Part shown: in pieces, positions 9,012 to 17,762 of the stretch
How positions within the stretch are numbered: the first letter of the stretch is position 1
Layout: each line of letters opens with the position of its first letter
Notes under the pieces: generated by a model
What the model was told of the DNA's origin: nothing
Seen by the model: the letters and a program-made list of their open reading frames with translations, nothing else
Databases searched by the model: none
From: Reyranella sp.
GTDB taxonomy: Bacteria > Pseudomonadota > Alphaproteobacteria > Reyranellales > Reyranellaceae
Assembly: GCF_004297405.1 (NCBI RefSeq)
Contig: NZ_SCVC01000043.1
Location: forward strand, 1-32,000
Reading direction: 5' to 3'
Length of the DNA: 32,000 bases
Made by a program: the position numbers and the translations under genes

Positions 9012-9860
9012 ATGTTTCTAAAGTCTCTTTGCTCAGGCTTGGCCCGGCACTGGCCCACAATCCCCCAGTCAATGCTTGTTGTATGGGGCTTAACTTGGCT
9101 CTTGATCGAGCCGTCGGCGTTCTTCTTTCCATTTGCAAAAACGCTGGCCGAAACCTACGCACCGGAGGTAGTCGGCGGATCGTCGCTTGTGGCGATCATA
9201 TATTCAATTCTTGCCACCAAAGATCCCATACAGATCCACTTTCCCATTAAGACGACAACGACCGAGGTCTGGATAAGGTTCGGAGATCTATTCGAAGCTG
9301 ACGGACACGTCGTCATTGCCGTCAACGAGTTCTTCGACAGTGAAATCGGGCGACCAGTCGCCCCTAGTTCTGTTCACGGCCAGTTCATTACTCGTGTTCT
9401 TGGCGGCAATGCCAATCGATTTAACGCTGATGTCGACCGAAGCTTAGACGGCACTGCATCGGACATAGTTGACCGGCCCGAGGGACGACCCCGTCGCTAT
9501 CCCCTAGGCACAACGGCTATTCTTCATGAGGGTCGGCGGAAGTACTTCCTGTTTGCGTTGACCAAGACGGATCCGGTGACTTGCGAAGCGAACGCGGATG
9601 TACCTCAAATGTGGTCTGCATTGCTCAAACTTTGGGATTGCGTTCGGGTCGAAGCGAACGGTGAACGCGTCTGCATGCCACTAATCGGCGCCGGACTGGC
9701 GAGAATCAATTTAGAGCCCACCCATCTCTTGCGGTTGGCTTTGCTTTCGCTCCTTGTTCAGACCAGGAGCCGGACAATTACCAGCCAGATTGAGATCGTC
9801 CTACATAAGAGCCTTATTGGCAGGATCGACCTTCGAGCAGTGCGGGACGATTGGAGATAG
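9012..9860 (+). CDS. thsA: Membrane-anchored Macro-domain protein, type II Thoeris ThsA-like effector
   Basis: 282 aa. There are two N-terminal hydrophobic helices (MLVVWGLTWLLIEPSAFFFPF and VVGGSSLVAIIYSILA). Macro-like motifs follow: IRFGDLFEADGHVVIAVNEFFD (compare GDIT..DAIVNAAN) and VCMPLIGAGLARI (compare FPxIxTGxxG). The stop at 9858-9860 lies 1 nt before the TIR-like gene. Confidence 0.6.
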   Translation: MFLKSLCSGLARHWPTIPQSMLVVWGLTWLLIEPSAFFFPFAKTLAETYAPEVVGGSSLVAIIYSILATKDPIQIHFPIKTTTTEVWIRFGDLFEADGHVVIAVNEFFDSEIGRPVAPSSVHGQFITRVLGGNANRFNADVDRSLDGTASDIVDRPEGRPRRYPLGTTAILHEGRRKYFLFALTKTDPVTCEANADVPQMWSALLKLWDCVRVEANGERVCMPLIGAGLARINLEPTHLLRLALLSLLVQTRSRTITSQIEIVLHKSLIGRIDLRAVRDDWR

Positions 9861-9861
9861 C

Positions 9862-10416
9862 ATGGCATATCGCAGCGGCACATACGTCGCGTTCCATGCA
9901 GAAGGAACGTCGGATCCGACGGAATCTGACATGAAATACTATCGGCTTCTTCAAGCGTGGGACAAGAACAAGAAGTTCGACTTCCGTCTGGTCAACAGTC
10001 ACGACAAGGTGGCTGCAGTACGCGACACTAGCAAACGTGCAACCTTGGAAGCGAGCCTCCGTCAGCGGCTCAGTAACTCCCGGAACGTGCTTTTAATAAT
10101 TGGCAAGACGACCAAATTGGACGATGACTGGATACCGTTCGAGATTGCCTACGCAGTAGACAAATGTACGATCCCGATCATCGCAGCCTACACCGACTAC
10201 GTAACTGTCACAGCACCGGCACAATTGCGCGGCCTCTGGCCAAAGGCGCTGGCGCTTCGAATCGCGAACCAGACCGCGCGTGTCATTCACATACCATTCA
10301 AACAGGCACCAGTTACCGATGCGGTCGGTCAGTTCGATCACAACAACTTACCCAAAGGCGCTGCTAGCCACTATGGCGCGGACACCTACCGCGCGTGGGG
10401 ACTAGGGCATCAGTGA
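9862..10416 (+). CDS. thsB: TIR-like (DUF1863 / ThsB-type) protein
   Basis: 184 aa from the internal ATG, beginning MAYRSGTYVAFHAEGTSDPTESDMKYYRLLQAWD. It contains ...NVLLIIGKTTKLDDDWIPFEIAYAV, the W..FEI glutamate context typical of DUF1863/ThsB TIR-like domains. It is tightly coupled to the Macro gene. Confidence 0.6.
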   Translation: MAYRSGTYVAFHAEGTSDPTESDMKYYRLLQAWDKNKKFDFRLVNSHDKVAAVRDTSKRATLEASLRQRLSNSRNVLLIIGKTTKLDDDWIPFEIAYAVDKCTIPIIAAYTDYVTVTAPAQLRGLWPKALALRIANQTARVIHIPFKQAPVTDAVGQFDHNNLPKGAASHYGADTYRAWGLGHQ

Positions 10417-10956: not shown

Positions 10957-12336
10957 CTACCTTCCGAGACGAGGAATGCGTAACGATTGGCCCACATAGA
11001 TGCGATCTGGATGTTCTAGCTTGTCCAAGTTCGCCTTGAAGATGTCAGGTGCTTTAGTGTGGTCATTGTAATATTGCATCGCGATAGCGTTCAGGCCGTC
11101 TCCGGGCACAACACGGTGAATTGCCAGGATCTCCGTGGGAGGTTCGACGCCAACGCCCAAAGTCTGAGCGTCAAGGCCACTCAGGATGGCTGAGACGTTC
11201 GCCAGGGTCTTTGGTTTGTAGGCGGTTTTGTCCTTGAGGTTCTCGGGCTTGTCCAGCCAGCGCCTTCGGGCGCTAATGCTGACTTCGTGCAGAAGCTTGG
11301 GACCCGGAACACGGTCGACCTTGGGCAGCAGATCCATGATCCTTGAAATGATCCCAGGTCGTGCCACCGGGAGTGCGTTCTGAAGATGATCCTTGTAGTC
11401 GGGGGAAAGCTCGAAGATCCGCGATTGCGGCACGCCGTCGAACTCCAGGCCGCATTTTCGAGCGCCATCTAGAACCCAATCCAGCGCCTGATCTGAAAGC
11501 CCGCGCCGCTCACCACCACCACCAACAGCACCGTGCACGCCGGGGAACCAACGCTGCTGGTAGGGTGCGTCATCAGCTTTCTCGTCAGCGCCGACACCCA
11601 CATTCAGCTCAGCAACGTTGTCCCACAGGGTCGGCAGAAAATCACGCCGGTGTTCATCGATCGCCACGGCATGTCGTGCGCTCTTGATAAAGGGGGAGAG
11701 GCGCGTGTCGTGAAACTGATGCTGCCTGTTGAGGAAGGCGAGTAACTTGTATCGGGCTGGGATGCCGAGTGCTCCGACCGAGTCCCAGACCCCGAGATAA
11801 TCGATCTTCAGCCGGCCACTTTGGCCGGCCGTGTAGCCCTTCACGTTTGCGCACCGCCAAGCCTCATCTTCATCAGACACACATAGGGCAGGTGAGTAGT
11901 TGCTCCGGAATGCCATCATCTCCGCAGCAAAGGCGGTCGAGTCCCCTTTCCTATTCTGGTAACGCTCGATAGCTTCGGTGACCTTAGAAGCGTCGCTTCG
12001 TTGCAGGAGGCCGCAGGTACTCAGCATCCCCGCGAAGGAGCGTGCGGTGTAGGCCCCCCGTGAGAAGCCGAAGACATAGATCTGATCTCCCGGCGTGTGA
12101 TTGAAAATGAGAAAGCGATAGGCGTCCCCCAGGTTCTCGACCATTCCGGCGCCGAAGATGCCTCCGGTGTACTTCTCCCATTTTCCCGTGCCGATGCCCT
12201 CATCATAGAAGATGGCTTGAGCAGTACCGTCACTCGCCTGCGGGAGAACACTCTCGGCGGTAATAACAACGTTCGTCGGGTATGGCGCATCGAGGCGATT
12301 CCACGTCCCATCAAAGCAGATGACTAACCTCTTCAT
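10957..12336 (-). CDS. DUF2235 (Tle1-like alpha/beta hydrolase) fused to a C-terminal LysM domain
   Basis: 459 aa. The N-terminus LVICFDGTWN and the nucleophile elbow YVFGFSRGAYTARS (Ser92) are typical of DUF2235. The C-terminus HRVVPGDGLNAIAMQYYNDHTKAPDIFKANLDKLEHPDRIYVGQSLRIP is a LysM pattern. No signal peptide is visible. Confidence 0.75.
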   Translation of the reverse strand: MKRLVICFDGTWNRLDAPYPTNVVITAESVLPQASDGTAQAIFYDEGIGTGKWEKYTGGIFGAGMVENLGDAYRFLIFNHTPGDQIYVFGFSRGAYTARSFAGMLSTCGLLQRSDASKVTEAIERYQNRKGDSTAFAAEMMAFRSNYSPALCVSDEDEAWRCANVKGYTAGQSGRLKIDYLGVWDSVGALGIPARYKLLAFLNRQHQFHDTRLSPFIKSARHAVAIDEHRRDFLPTLWDNVAELNVGVGADEKADDAPYQQRWFPGVHGAVGGGGERRGLSDQALDWVLDGARKCGLEFDGVPQSRIFELSPDYKDHLQNALPVARPGIISRIMDLLPKVDRVPGPKLLHEVSISARRRWLDKPENLKDKTAYKPKTLANVSAILSGLDAQTLGVGVEPPTEILAIHRVVPGDGLNAIAMQYYNDHTKAPDIFKANLDKLEHPDRIYVGQSLRIPRLGR

Positions 12337-12599: not shown

Positions 12600-12641
12600 G
12601 CAGCGAATTCAGCCTGGTAAGGGCGGGCTTGGCGTAGGCAA

Positions 12642-12914
12642 ATGGATCCACTGACAGGGTGCCGGAAATGGTATCGGCCATCCCTTAATTTGACGGACGT
12701 CGTCGGAGACGTGAACAGGATCATTGATGCCAAGCGCCCTGACGCGCCATTTATGCTGGTGACCGACGGCATCACCTGGACGCGGCGGGAGTCGGACCTT
12801 AGCAAGCTTGTACAGCTGCAAATCGGCGGCCAGATCGCCCGGATCTACACCACCAAGATGGCGTCACAGTTCAAGGCCGAACTTGAGACGCTAAGGGCAG
12901 AATTGAAGATCTGA
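12642..12914 (+). CDS. Hypothetical 90-aa ORF; possibly the C-terminal remnant of a restriction endonuclease-like gene
   Basis: The segment FMLVTDGITWTRRESDLSKLV resembles the xxITDGxGW C-terminal motif I recall from DpnII/MboI-type enzymes. This is memory-level and weak. An in-frame stop lies 24 nt upstream of the ATG. Confidence 0.25.
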   Translation: MDPLTGCRKWYRPSLNLTDVVGDVNRIIDAKRPDAPFMLVTDGITWTRRESDLSKLVQLQIGGQIARIYTTKMASQFKAELETLRAELKI

Positions 12915-12961
12915 GTGCGCTCCAAGTCGGCCAGACATACCGTCCCTTGCGCCCGGACATT

Positions 12962-12982
12962 TTGTCCATATACTATGGACAA
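12962..12982. promoter_or_regulatory. Perfect 21-bp palindrome (9+3+9), candidate operator of the HTH gene
   Basis: TTGTCCATA-tac-TATGGACAA lies 20 nt upstream of the ATG at 13002. Extra half-sites are GGACA at 12955-12959 and TATGGAC at 13001-13007, which overlaps the start codon. Confidence 0.5.
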
Positions 12983-13001: not shown

Positions 13002-13541
13002 ATGGACCGTAACGAATTACTGCTGGTGCTTCGAAAGCTTCGCCTCTCCCCGAAGGAGGCGGCCGGGCTCCTGTCGGTCGATCCCAAGACTGTAGCAAGA
13101 TGGATGGAGCGTGGAGCGAAAGTCCCTGGCCCCGCCGAACAGGCCTTGCGGGCATGGGCCAGATTGGCGGACGCAGGATTGCCTTGGCGGCCGCGGGAAT
13201 GCCTTATCGGTTTGTCGGAAGCAGATGCGGCCGAGCAGATCAGATTGCTGCGCGAGCACAATCTGGCGCTCGACGACATGCTACGCCGTGTAAAGGCCCG
13301 CGGTGGACCCGCAGCTCCGTGGATGGTCGACCTGGACAACCACACCGCGGAACTCGGTGAATCGATGAGGCTGTACTTTTATGCGCTCCCCGATGGCGGA
13401 TTTTCTCCTTCGTCATACAGCCGATTGGACCGCGACCCAAACTACGAACGCGACTGGCCGCTAATCGAGGATGCGATCGCCAGTATCGCCGAAGCGATCC
13501 GTGATGCAGGCCCTCGCTGGTATAAGCGTGCCAATGTCTGA
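13002..13541 (+). CDS. HTH DNA-binding protein (XRE/MerR-like N-terminus) with unknown C-terminal domain
   Basis: 179 aa. LSPKEAAGLLSVDPKTVARWMERG is a helix-turn-helix pattern. Third-position GC looks coding. The stop overlaps the next gene's start by 8 nt (ATGTCTGA). Confidence 0.7.
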   Translation: MDRNELLLVLRKLRLSPKEAAGLLSVDPKTVARWMERGAKVPGPAEQALRAWARLADAGLPWRPRECLIGLSEADAAEQIRLLREHNLALDDMLRRVKARGGPAAPWMVDLDNHTAELGESMRLYFYALPDGGFSPSSYSRLDRDPNYERDWPLIEDAIASIAEAIRDAGPRWYKRANV

Positions 13542-14286
13542 TCCATTGGACGAGACGCCGGTCGACATGGCGATTCGGTTCCAGAGCGGGCTGATCGCAT
13601 CTGCGACGGGTAGTGCATTCGACGGCGGCGGCGACGCCTACAAGCAGCTCCGTCACTATTTCGCGTCGCACCTCGACACGAAGGCAAAGCTGGTCCGCCG
13701 GTGCAGCGACCTCGGTCAGTTCTGGGGCTTCATAAAGTACGAGCGCGCAAGGTATGCTGAACGTCGCGATTTGGTCTGGGACGCCTTTCGGCCCTTAATC
13801 GAGCATCTTGAAGCAAATGACCGGCCGCCGGGTTCCGAAGCCATCGGCCCCGCACTCCAAAGGTTCGACTCCGAACACGTGGCGGCCGCCTGGCAGAAGG
13901 CGCTCGATCGCCGCGTGGCGGATCCGGAAGGGGCGATCACCGCGGCGCACACCTTGCTCGAGACGGTCTGCAAGCATGTGCTGGATGTCGCCAGCATTCC
14001 ATGCTCCGCCGACGCCGACCTGCCGAAACTATGGGCGCTTGTGGCCGAGCAGCTAAACCTGGCCCCTCACCAGCATCAGGAAACTGTCTTCAAAGCCATC
14101 CTCGGCAACTGCCAGGCCGTGGTGAACAATCTCGGTACAACACGGAATCGTGTTGGCGACGCCCACGGCCATGGCCGCAATCCGGTGAAACCAAAAGCGC
14201 GGCATGCAGAGCTTGCAGTCAATCTTGCTGGCACGATGGCTTCGTTCATCGTGTCGACCTGGCAGGAGCGTCAGGAGGCCAAATGA
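13534..14286 (+). CDS. Abortive-infection family protein with Abi_C (AbiJ-like HEPN) C-terminal domain
   Basis: 250 aa from the internal ATG. It contains DPEGAITAAHTLLETVCKHVL ... LPKLW ... LGTTRNRVGDAHGHG ... RHAELAVNLAGTMASFIV, which matches the Abi_C pattern. RNRVGDAH is an Rx6H HEPN motif (R204-H211). Confidence 0.7.
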   Translation: MSDPLDETPVDMAIRFQSGLIASATGSAFDGGGDAYKQLRHYFASHLDTKAKLVRRCSDLGQFWGFIKYERARYAERRDLVWDAFRPLIEHLEANDRPPGSEAIGPALQRFDSEHVAAAWQKALDRRVADPEGAITAAHTLLETVCKHVLDVASIPCSADADLPKLWALVAEQLNLAPHQHQETVFKAILGNCQAVVNNLGTTRNRVGDAHGHGRNPVKPKARHAELAVNLAGTMASFIVSTWQERQEAK

Positions 14287-14314
14287 CACTCAGACCAGAA
14301 AGGAACACGGACGC

Positions 14315-14575
14315 ATGATCGACGTGCCAATGGCCTACGGCTCACACCATCGCATCACACAGAGCGTCAACGACGTGCGCGTCAGCCTCGTTCCTGGCCC
14401 AGAAGTCGAGTTGACGGCGTTCGTCGTTCCCGATTCCGGCATTTCGAACTTGTCGTCCCTGCCGTCAGCAAGCATCACGATCCACATGGACGTTCCGTCC
14501 GCGAGAGAGCTTCTCTCACAGTTAATAGGCATGTTCCAGGTCCAGGGCTGGCCGCTGCCTCGCGAGCACCGTTGA
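14315..14575 (+). CDS. Small hypothetical protein (86 aa)
   Basis: Internal ATG with AGGAA 9 nt upstream. GC-rich third positions. It lies 28 nt after the Abi_C gene and 76 nt before the TIR gene. No motif recognised. Confidence 0.45.
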   Translation: MIDVPMAYGSHHRITQSVNDVRVSLVPGPEVELTAFVVPDSGISNLSSLPSASITIHMDVPSARELLSQLIGMFQVQGWPLPREHR

Positions 14576-14651
14576 TGGGCGCAGGGTCGGGCCGGCGCGA
14601 GGCGACACACGAAACGAAGAGAACCATCAGGTCCAAGAGCCGAGAGACGCC

Positions 14652-15599
14652 ATGCCAGTGACAGTATTCATTTCGTACTCGCATGCAGATGCCGCGGTGC
14701 TTGAGCGTCTGCATAAGCATCTTGCGATGCTGCGTCGCGACTCGATCATCAAGGCTTGGACCGACCACGAAATCCTTCCAGGTGACCGCTTCGACGCCGT
14801 CATCAAGAGCAGCCTCGAAAACAGCGCATTGTTTCTGGCGCTTGTCAGCCCTGACTATCTTGCTTCCAACTATTGCTATGAGAAGGAGTTTCAGCACGCA
14901 TTGACTCTCATGAAAGCCGGGCGTCTTCGCATCGTGCCGATCATCGTAGAACCGTGCGACTGGCAAAACTCGCCCTTCGGCCAGTTCATGGCACTGCCCA
15001 AAGATGGAAAGCCGGTTTCGGATTGGACCAACGCGAACACAGCCTATCTCGACGTCGTGGGAGGTCTCCGAAGGTTCCTGACGGCGCCTGCGCCTTCGTT
15101 GACAACTGAGATCAGAACGGCTCCCGGCAACGCCGCACCTCGGCGCGTACGGGTCAAGCAGGATTTCGACTCGATTCAGAAGGCCGAATTCACCGACCGG
15201 GCATACGAGATCATCCGCAACTATTTCGAATCATCGTGCAAGGAGCTTACCGAGGTTGGAGAGGGCACTCTGAAGGCGAAGTTCGAAGCGATGAACGCCA
15301 CGACCTTCACCTGCACGGTCATCAATCGAGCGAAGAAGTCCGCCGAGGCACACATAACCATCCGCAATTCCAAAGGTGGTGGAGGTTTCTTCGGCGACAT
15401 CAACTACGTCTATGAGCGCCATGCGCCCGGCAATATATCCAATGGCCACGTGGGCGTGGAAGCAGACGACTACAGTCTCTATCTGACCTTGGCCAATTTC
15501 TCTTCTGGCCGTTCACGGGAGGACAAGTATTCGGCCGAACAGGTCGCCGACCGACTGTGGTCCGATTTGGTCAGCCGGGCGGGCATTGAGTACGAATAG
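14652..15599 (+). CDS. TIR-domain protein with about 170-aa C-terminal domain of unknown function
   Basis: 315 aa. The N-terminus VFISYSHADAAVLERLHKHL ... LFLALVSPDYLASNYCYEKEF is a bacterial TIR_2 pattern with Glu77/Glu79 at the catalytic-Glu position. After about residue 140 I recognise no motif. Confidence 0.8.
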   Translation: MPVTVFISYSHADAAVLERLHKHLAMLRRDSIIKAWTDHEILPGDRFDAVIKSSLENSALFLALVSPDYLASNYCYEKEFQHALTLMKAGRLRIVPIIVEPCDWQNSPFGQFMALPKDGKPVSDWTNANTAYLDVVGGLRRFLTAPAPSLTTEIRTAPGNAAPRRVRVKQDFDSIQKAEFTDRAYEIIRNYFESSCKELTEVGEGTLKAKFEAMNATTFTCTVINRAKKSAEAHITIRNSKGGGGFFGDINYVYERHAPGNISNGHVGVEADDYSLYLTLANFSSGRSREDKYSAEQVADRLWSDLVSRAGIEYE

Positions 15600-16124: not shown

Positions 16125-17762
16125 ATGAAGTTCCCTCGCCTCAGCCAGTATCGAACTGGCGGCACCAGCCAACACATGAAGGTCGGCATACCCCTACCCC
16201 GCACGCCGGATGGCCGGGTCTATCGGTTTTCGCCGAATGAGAATGCGTACCCACGCCACTTTGTTATCGGCAACGTCGTCGCGAGCGTCGGCCTTTCGAA
16301 GGAACTACGCGTTCGAATGAAGCATGAGCCCCACACTAAGCAAACTGTTTGCCCCTATAGCGGCATTGTCGCCGATGACGATGCATTCATACATCCAGAC
16401 GATGTGAAAGCAGCGCTGGAAATAGTAAAGCACGCCGCAGCGCAGGACATGCAAGACGCCGTATCGGATATATTCAGAAACGCGTTCAAAGGGAGTTCTT
16501 CGGTAAAAGGACCCATCAGAGTTACGACAGACGTAAAGCGCAGCATACCAAAGCCGAAACCGCGCTTTTCCCGCCAGGACCTTATGCGTAAGCTGGTCTG
16601 CGACCATTGCGGCCGCGACTATGGACTCTTCGCCATCGGCCTCTTCTGTCCCGACTGTGGCGCCCCCAATCTTCGACTACATTTCTCGCGCGAAGCGGAA
16701 TTGGTCGATGACCAGGTCTCGCTAGCTAAAGGAATCGAAACCGAGAAGGAAGAGTTAGCTTATCGCCTGTTGGGCAACGCTCACGAAGACGTCTTGACGG
16801 CTTTTGAAGCGACGCTAAAGGCCGTCTATTTTTATGGGAAAGCGCAGGCCAATGTCAGTCCGCCAAAGGTTGGAAACGATTTTCAGAATATAGATAAGGC
16901 TCTTAGGCGGTTCGCAGAACTCAATCTCAATCCCTTCGCGGAATTGACCGATCCCGAGATGGCAGCGTTGCTGCTCAACATCCAAAAGCGCCACATCATC
17001 GGCCACAATCTCGGCGTCGTGGATGACAAGTTTGCTACCCATGCAAACGATGCCAAGGTCGGTGAGACCGTAGGTCTCGTCGGTGCAGACATCCAGCAGT
17101 TCGCCGCCATTGGTCAGAAGGTTGTCGACGGGCTCGATGCTTGGCTTTGCGGTTCACCATCACCTACCGTCAATCATTCGCCTTTGCTCATGACAATCAA
17201 GGAACCGACCGTAGATCCAGATGATCCTAAAAACCTTAGGGCGCTCGACCTTCAGCTATCGCTGTTGGCGCGCAAAGTGGCCGTTTGGGTGGCCGAGCAT
17301 TGCACCGACGGTTCGCGCGGCTTTGTGGATGCCAGCAAGCTGCGCAAGGAATTCAAAGACAACTCCGAAGTGGAACTTGAGGAAGCAGTAGCCGAGTTGG
17401 CCACTGATGGTTTCGTAGAGATATCGCATTTTTCTGGTGGCGGATTGACGAACTTCCGGCCTTTGCTCGATCTCTATCTGACATTCGACGGACCGGCATT
17501 CGGTCGTGACCCGGTCGCCGACACAGTAACAGTCACTGAGCTTGCACTGGCGAGGCCGGATAGCGTCAGGGGTGAAGAGCTCTTAGCGCAAACAGGCTGG
17601 GATCTACGACGATTCAACCCAATATTCGAGCACATTGCGGCGCAAATCCCGGATCGTGGAGTGCGCCGCTATCTTGGCACCAAGCTTTCTGTCTCTTCCC
17701 TCCACCTACTCGCCGAAGACCGCGTACAATTAAAGCGGTTCGTCGCTCGTCTGAAGAGCTAA
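16125..17762 (+). CDS. Large hypothetical protein: zinc ribbon plus candidate HEPN-like helical domain plus C-terminal winged-helix-like region
   Basis: 545 aa. The ribbon is CDHC-N12-CPDC (C159-C178). It is followed by a helical region containing NIQKRHIIGHNLG, an Rx4H motif at R289-H294 with a polar residue after R, as in HEPN. GC looks lower than in the flanking core. It is separated from the TIR gene by 525 nt with no convincing ORF. Confidence 0.6.
   Translation: MKFPRLSQYRTGGTSQHMKVGIPLPRTPDGRVYRFSPNENAYPRHFVIGNVVASVGLSKELRVRMKHEPHTKQTVCPYSGIVADDDAFIHPDDVKAALEIVKHAAAQDMQDAVSDIFRNAFKGSSSVKGPIRVTTDVKRSIPKPKPRFSRQDLMRKLVCDHCGRDYGLFAIGLFCPDCGAPNLRLHFSREAELVDDQVSLAKGIETEKEELAYRLLGNAHEDVLTAFEATLKAVYFYGKAQANVSPPKVGNDFQNIDKALRRFAELNLNPFAELTDPEMAALLLNIQKRHIIGHNLGVVDDKFATHANDAKVGETVGLVGADIQQFAAIGQKVVDGLDAWLCGSPSPTVNHSPLLMTIKEPTVDPDDPKNLRALDLQLSLLARKVAVWVAEHCTDGSRGFVDASKLRKEFKDNSEVELEEAVAELATDGFVEISHFSGGGLTNFRPLLDLYLTFDGPAFGRDPVADTVTVTELALARPDSVRGEELLAQTGWDLRRFNPIFEHIAAQIPDRGVRRYLGTKLSVSSLHLLAEDRVQLKRFVARLKS

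Follow-up and report, generated by a model that had tools for sequence, protein, structure and literature searches.

We consider a compact cassette of four co-directional genes (G1 to G4, positions 13002-15599) in a stretch of 32,000 nucleotides (nt) of Reyranella sp. DNA (contig NZ_SCVC01000043.1, positions 1 to 32,000; this whole stretch is referred to as the window). An earlier note on the same DNA had recognized in the cassette a helix-turn-helix (HTH) protein, an AbiJ-like HEPN protein, a small protein and a TIR protein, and had proposed them as one undescribed defence system. Our analysis points to a different picture. The cassette is probably an operon repressed by G1, a patchwork, specific to this lineage, of modules that are distributed independently of each other and stand in a defence island, and not one conserved system. 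The four families do not co-occur outside close relatives (of at least 85% identity), and models already exist for both enzymatic genes (the PADLOC AbiJ model covers the HEPN part of G2 and the ThsB model PDLC00420 covers G4). On these two grounds, which the earlier note itself had named, its one-system interpretation fails; the note had also explicitly allowed an alternative, two adjacent units.

Do the four genes occur together elsewhere? Around the two enzymatic genes, this is examined with tblastn and with hidden Markov models (HMMs) of the families. The sample for G4 consists of 58 genome loci from different species (27-61% identity), with 1.7 kb or more of upstream sequence in 56 of them, and the sample for G2 consists of 80 metagenome loci (47-71% identity), with at least 550 nt upstream in 55 and at least 800 nt downstream in 52. 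Homologues of G1, G2 and G3 are found near 0 of the 58 G4 homologues, and G1, G3 and G4 near 0 of the 80 G2 homologues, which means that neither at the tblastn nor at the profile level does a co-occurrence appear beyond close relatives. All-against-all clustering of the flanking open reading frames (ORFs) yields no recurrent partner for the G2 family, and for the G4 family no recurrent neighbour except restriction-modification (R-M) genes upstream of its Bacteroidota homologues; Pfam scans of 118 G2 neighbours and 76 G4 neighbours give no family in more than three members. In about a dozen contexts, the homologues of G1 are found singly (some with housekeeping genes on both sides) or at the head of unrelated genes, and R-M genes, integrases or insertion sequences are often their neighbours; no Abi_C gene is detected beside those sampled. 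For G3, the one readable context (a contig of 573 nt, with a homologue at 52% identity) shows neither G2 nor G4 as a flank.

The N-terminus of G4 is a bacterial TIR domain, as had been read from the sequence: the Pfam TIR_2 match is well above threshold (70.9 bits versus a cut-off of 28, E = 1.7e-19), and in the AlphaFold model (predicted local distance difference test score, pLDDT, of 82) the TIR domain (amino acids, aa, 1-145) superposes on the TIR domains of AbTir, BtpA, SARM1 and plants (Foldseek, probability 1.00). The closest solved relative by sequence is Cat1, a CRISPR-associated TIR protein, and residue E79, invariant in 27 sequences, aligns with its conserved glutamate position. The model continues with a disordered linker and a C-terminal domain (aa ~165-315) in which one helix precedes and another follows six strands. 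The earlier note was thus right that an extra domain is fused to the TIR, and its description of that domain as unassigned does not hold, as precomputed annotations give it the Pfam entry PF27176, "Y4lF". No solved relative of the Y4lF domain is found, a Foldseek comparison of the G4 model with viral structures returns nothing significant, and a literature search for "y4lF" finds nothing relevant.

The TIR-Y4lF family is large (at least 1157 clusters, in Alpha-, Beta- and Gammaproteobacteria and Bacteroidota, and on 40 plasmids). The PADLOC ThsB model PDLC00420 matches G4 from end to end (E = 2.2e-62, aa 4-308, profile positions 3-313 of 319), and the family is therefore already in a defence database. 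The partner that this label implies is not detected beside the family in the contexts covered. With the window's ThsA as a tblastn query, no ThsA is found within 10 kb of the G4 homologues in any of the 58 genome loci; none of the ThsA families is among the Pfam families listed near 20 alphaproteobacterial homologues (25 of 38); and no ThsA is annotated in four plasmid contexts, including that of y4lF of pNGR234a. The match of G4 to a ThsB model is therefore not accompanied by the pair of genes by which Thoeris is defined. Upstream of the TIR-Y4lF gene, co-directional R-M genes of Type I or Type IIG are present at no fewer than 22 Bacteroidota loci; at one of them (L025), the TIR-Y4lF gene begins 12 nt past the Type IIG gene. 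As a whole, the G4 family has the behaviour of a lone gene, often placed at the end of other defence operons. TIR-Y4lF is a probable candidate for a single-gene TIR defence, and it may be a widespread class of such defences that current tools wrongly file as Thoeris ThsB. As PADLOC gives the ThsB label despite the absence of ThsA, counts of Thoeris systems may be inflated. A layout like the window's order of HTH, Abi-type gene and TIR-Y4lF, with a different middle gene, is present on plasmid pR24_2 of Microvirga terrae (L160:2724-4960), where the TIR-Y4lF homologue (57% identity) stands behind an HTH regulator and a gene of the reverse-transcriptase family that overlaps it.

For G2, the Abi_C pattern and the Rx6H motif (RNRVGDAH) pointed out earlier are both borne out: Pfam Abi_C (PF14355) matches aa 164-240 with 66.6 bits against a cut-off of 24 (E = 2.2e-18, profile positions 1-82 of 83), and R204, N205, D209 and H211 of the motif are invariant in 25 homologues (61-89% identity). 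The PADLOC AbiJ profile also matches the HEPN part (E = 5e-19, profile positions 164-276), and that part only; aa 1-160 have no match in Pfam. Neither Pfam nor PADLOC finds a signal-binding domain (SLOG, Macro, SAVED, CARF and the like) in G2, and a comparison of the family with solved structures gives no solved relative for the ~255-aa subfamily to which it belongs. A possible relationship between the C-terminal domain of G4 and the N-terminal domain of G2 was considered and is rejected (hhalign probability 0.5%).

The G2 family comprises at least 2714 clusters and carries the NCBI name "abortive infection family protein". Homologues at 75-78% identity already stand in other contexts, one behind an MmeI-type enzyme and one behind a resolvase. 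AbiJ-type HEPN proteins have been described as single proteins with an N-terminal sensor-like domain and a HEPN toxin, in many cases linked with R-M operons (Anantharaman et al. 2013, PMC3710099), and the distribution of G2 fits this single-protein description. At the locus with the MmeI-type enzyme (L142:3247-7872), the G2 homologue (75% identity) begins 3 nt past the R-M gene and has a RelA/SpoT-domain gene behind it, on a contig that is plasmid-like in carrying ArdA, ArdC, ParA and Rep genes. We know of no member of the ~255-aa subfamily with a tested phenotype.

The gene that heads the cassette belongs to a small family (58 clusters) that is conserved over its full length. That G1 is an HTH protein, as the earlier note had it, is supported by a confident AlphaFold model (pLDDT of 92.7) with an N-terminal helical domain of the DNA-binding type, a long helix, and a small domain of a sheet plus a helix; the Pfam HTH matches are all below their cut-offs (the best with 19.5 versus 24.6). 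A weak Pfam match is to an antitoxin Xre-like HTH. In a Foldseek search of the PDB, the model has no significant match (best E = 0.04), and its best weak neighbours are the Xre-type antitoxins NatR, MbcA and HigA, together with Aca2. Viral contigs contain one G1 match. On some Bradyrhizobium and Caulobacter plasmids, the G1 module forms the N-terminus of proteins that are longer (256-324 aa) and whose additional ~100-150 C-terminal residues have no Pfam domain.

The earlier note had also described a perfect palindrome ahead of the cassette, and this is present and occurs once in the window; 100 shuffles give no match to it, even with two mismatches tolerated. It overlaps a second, shorter dyad, GGACA-N3-TGTCC, with which it has the TGTCC half-site in common and to which it adds a third GGACA half-site. 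The shorter dyad is the element that recurs. In the window, it has a single copy, where 0.03 matches are expected by chance, and within the cassette the only further matches are at chance level, with two mismatches. It is found with 0-2 mismatches 46-73 nt 5' of the start codon of G1 homologues at 10 loci, whose promoters are otherwise unrelated. At six of the ten, the match has 0 or 1 mismatch and is not equalled by any control window of the same locus; at three others it has one mismatch and is equalled by 1-3% of the control windows, and at the tenth it is weak (two mismatches, equalled by 11%). Similar -35 and -10 hexamers flank the operator in the G1-family loci. In the window, a putative sigma-70-type promoter, assigned from the sequence, places the operator in its spacer; a consensus scan missed this promoter because the -35 hexamer is too weak. 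Both relatives of the cassette (contigs L059-61 and L144, described below) retain just the TTGTCC...GGACAA cores of the arms of the palindrome. The palindrome is part of a real operator, as had been proposed, with the correction that the operator, kept upstream of G1 homologues across loci, belongs to the G1 family generally and not to this combination of genes. The conservation of the operator suggests that G1 is an autorepressor of its own promoter. A family of this kind, with a conserved GGACA-N3-TGTCC operator, would be a simple and testable regulator heading variable defence cargo.

The packing of the cassette is as the earlier note had measured it (an 8-nt overlap, a 28-nt gap and a 76-nt gap). 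A sequence scan finds no promoter-like or terminator-like site on the + strand within it, which is compatible with a single transcript for the four genes without proving one. Among the three copies of the cassette that can be compared, the ratio of nonsynonymous to synonymous substitution rates (dN/dS) is 0.05-0.33 at dS of 0.26-0.94 for the four genes, which indicates purifying selection on each of them; the values are 0.05-0.13 for G1 and 0.13-0.33 for G3. Because it is under purifying selection, the small G3 is a real gene. It has no family match in Pfam, PADLOC or NCBIfam and no match in viral contigs or in plasmids, and it is rare: 12 representatives are found among 1.84 billion proteins, nine of which are 59-122 aa long with common conserved motifs. 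G3 also matches 8-9 repeated stretches in giant proteins (P0303, P0305 and P0308, of 1503-5189 aa), and for this reason it may represent a repeat domain in free-standing form; the repeat has no name in Pfam.

The order G1-G2-G3-G4 is found in two other contexts only, the metagenome contigs L059-61 and L144, with 78-93% protein identity. The block of DNA common to the three contexts runs from window position 12691, in the 3' part of the DpnII gene, to 15603 (~86% identity), so that its right end is no more than 4 nt from the G4 stop codon; beyond it, the right flanks differ among all three. The left flank carries a history. In L144 it contains an intact DNA adenine methylase (373 aa) and a DpnII-type endonuclease (279 aa), L059 retains aa 105-280 of the DpnII-type protein, and the window retains just aa 187-280, in an ORF (12642-12914) that by itself has no family match. 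Since the pair is intact in one context, partial in another and a remnant here, the cassette once stood behind a DpnII-type R-M pair that has since decayed independently at least twice, so that any function the cassette still has in the window does not depend on that pair. A few kb downstream of the cassette in L144 (10647-13224) there are an HTH/M78-peptidase pair and a Multi_ubiq-ThiF(E1)-BubE operon, and the region is therefore a larger defence island.

The window itself has the same character, and the defence-island setting given in the earlier note is correct. Proteins identical to G4 and G2 are recorded from an assembly of Reyranella sp. The Thoeris-like pair that the earlier note had seen beside the cassette is a complete type II Thoeris (9012-10416), whose ThsA has its own ThsB and lies ~4.8 kb from G4. 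An opposite-strand gene for a Tle1-like phospholipase and the R-M remnant separate the pair from the cassette; the Tle1-like/LysM gene is an unusual neighbour in a defence island. On the other side of the cassette, and outside the block common to the relatives, a 545-aa protein has a partial match to a PADLOC candidate, a zinc-ribbon-like CxxC...CxxC and an RHIIGH (R-x4-H, HEPN-like) motif, and no Pfam match; it may be another defence gene, and metabolic genes lie beyond it. The coordinates of all these features are collected in Table 1.

Table 1. Features of the cassette, its promoter region and its surroundings (window positions; an L number before the colon gives a position in another locus)
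Feature	Position	Strand	Remarks
G1	13002-13541	+	179 aa, from the ORF table
G2	13534-14286	+	250 aa, counted from the ATG that gives the 8-nt overlap with G1
G3	14315-14575	+	86 aa, from the ORF table
G4	14652-15599	+	315 aa, from the ORF table
Putative sigma-70-type promoter	12947..12974	+	-35 TTGCGC 12947-12952, 16-nt spacer, -10 TATACT 12969-12974
Operator GGACA-N3-TGTCC (GGACATTTTGTCC)	12955..12967	.	within the promoter spacer, between TTGCGC and TATACT
Perfect palindrome TTGTCCATA-TAC-TATGGACAA	12962..12982	.	ends 20 nt 5' of the G1 ATG
DpnII-type restriction endonuclease remnant	12633..12914	+	last ~94 codons; tblastn with the L144 protein, 72% identity
ThsA-Macro	9012-9860	+	PADLOC PDLC00410, 4e-81; Pfam ThsA_Macro
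ThsB, TIR-like	9862-10416	+	PADLOC PDLC00421, 8.6e-65
Tle1-like phospholipase (DUF2235) with C-terminal LysM	10957-12336	-	between the Thoeris pair and the cassette
545-aa protein	16125-17762	+	partial match to PADLOC candidate PDC-M14A (aa 69-180)
Longer G1-type proteins (HTH plus alpha/beta domain)	L155:3950-4924, L156:3947-4717, L157:3953-4753		plasmids
Bacteroidota examples among L018-L056	L025:1289-5116, L024:6120-9245		TIR-Y4lF at the 3' end of R-M genes

Combining these observations, we can outline how the patchwork would work. G1 would bind the GGACA/TGTCC half-sites between the -35 and -10 hexamers of its own promoter and thereby set the expression of the genes downstream. Of the two domains of G2, the N-terminal one would be a sensor or an inhibitor and the C-terminal HEPN, from what is known of the family, an RNase that arrests the infected cell. 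G4 would presumably cleave nicotinamide adenine dinucleotide (NAD+) upon activation, since its TIR keeps the catalytic glutamate, with the Y4lF domain as a presumed sensor or assembly module. G2 and G4 would then be two self-contained abortive-infection effectors; the binding of the repressor, the RNase and NADase activities and the transcription as one unit are what we infer. The assembly of the cassette would have taken place in a single lineage, downstream of a restriction system that later decayed. The case carries a caution for genome scans, namely that genes of a defence island are not made into a system by being tightly packed under a common promoter; the comparative test that the earlier note had suggested is clearly negative here.

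Several points weigh against the patchwork. The order of the genes is kept at dS of 0.26-0.94 in three contexts with all of the genes constrained, as it would be in a functional unit, and the cassette is retained while the adjoining R-M gene decayed twice independently. The 8-nt overlap and the short gaps suggest translational coupling. The sampling of contexts is thin for two of the families (about a dozen for G1 and a single short contig for G3). The stand-alone activity of G2 or G4 would be an assumption, and G3 is left without an explanation.

It is mainly the first of these points, the order kept under purifying selection in three contexts, that keeps alive the idea of a composite functional unit. 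Here G1 would release a HEPN RNase and a TIR NADase jointly, G3 would couple or buffer the two, and the module would have arisen as a back-up behind the DpnII-type system and then become independent of it; we regard this as unlikely. The same observations (the constrained genes in a constant order, the survival of the cassette beside an R-M system that decayed twice, and the tight arrangement with no internal promoter or terminator signals) would also agree with one integrated system of four components, in which the TIR protein would sense infection or produce a nucleotide signal and the HEPN protein would act as the effector, with G3 as an adaptor and G1 in the role of repressor or antitoxin. 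In such a system, however, one would have to accept that no pair of the four families is found together outside relatives of at least 85% identity by BLAST and HMM in the 58 + 80 loci, that both enzymatic families are overwhelmingly solitary, and that G2, matched by Pfam and PADLOC in its HEPN part only, has no known signal-binding domain. We give this reading little probability.

We rate as similarly improbable that the cassette consists of two toxin-antitoxin-like pairs, with G1 as the DNA-binding antitoxin of the HEPN toxin G2 and G3 as a small protein that serves the TIR NADase G4 as antitoxin or immunity protein. The overlap between G1 and G2 is typical of such pairs, the promoter region carries a conserved operator, G3 is just 5' of G4, and the antitoxins and Aca2 among the best structural neighbours of G1 lean in the same direction as its weak Pfam match. 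Those structural matches, however, are not significant, G1 homologues are found alone between housekeeping genes or heading unrelated genes, and the proposed partners do not travel together (the G2 family is without G1 in 80 + 2 loci and the G4 family is without G3 in 58). Thoeris loci can carry several ThsB genes. That G4 is such an extra ThsB, a sensor whose signal activates the ThsA-Macro of the upstream type II Thoeris, would agree with its full-length match to PDLC00420 and with the complete pair nearby, but it is very improbable, given that the cassette contigs L059 and L144 are without ThsA, that none is found near G4 homologues in the genome, alphaproteobacterial and plasmid contexts covered, and that an opposite-strand gene and an R-M remnant intervene in the window. 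The integrated system, the two pairs and the auxiliary ThsB are each less likely than the patchwork of independent modules that we favour.

Finally, we compare the cassette and its parts with known systems. For abortive-infection nucleases that are embedded in R-M operons, we take PrrC in the EcoprrI locus to be the comparison. In L144 the cassette likewise stands behind a DpnII-type pair, and homologues of G4 and G2 trail R-M genes elsewhere; in the window, unlike in those systems, the R-M has decayed and the cassette is retained, and a monitoring of R-M by G2 or G4 is unsupported here. Combinations of HEPN and R-M genes have been described as embedded abortive-infection nucleases (PMC3710099). 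G2 resembles AbiJ/Abi_C proteins (Lactococcus AbiJ) in being one protein with a C-terminal HEPN domain containing R-x(4-6)-H, in having an N-terminal domain of ~125-160 aa before it, and in occurring in mobile-element or defence contexts, sometimes straight after R-M genes; it differs in that neither the PADLOC AbiJ profile nor a Pfam family matches its N-terminal half. G1 is like the Aca proteins and the Xre-type antitoxins (MbcA/NatR/HigA) in its N-terminal HTH with a small alpha/beta C-terminal domain, and in its palindromic operator within its own promoter with variable genes downstream, although it has no significant sequence or fold match to them. With Thoeris ThsB, G4 has in common a TIR with a glutamate at the catalytic position and the end-to-end match to one PADLOC ThsB model, whereas its additional Y4lF domain of ~150 aa and the lack of a detected ThsA partner of its family (58 genomes, the two relatives and four plasmid contexts) set it apart. 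Among the TIR defence systems that have been validated in E. coli, several are single proteins (TIR-II, V, VI and IX; Wang et al. 2024, PMC11350192). These belong to families other than that of G4, and none is reported with a Y4lF domain (PMC11350192). Their action requires the TIR active site and no partner, and the solitary distribution of the G4 family fits such a partner-free action.

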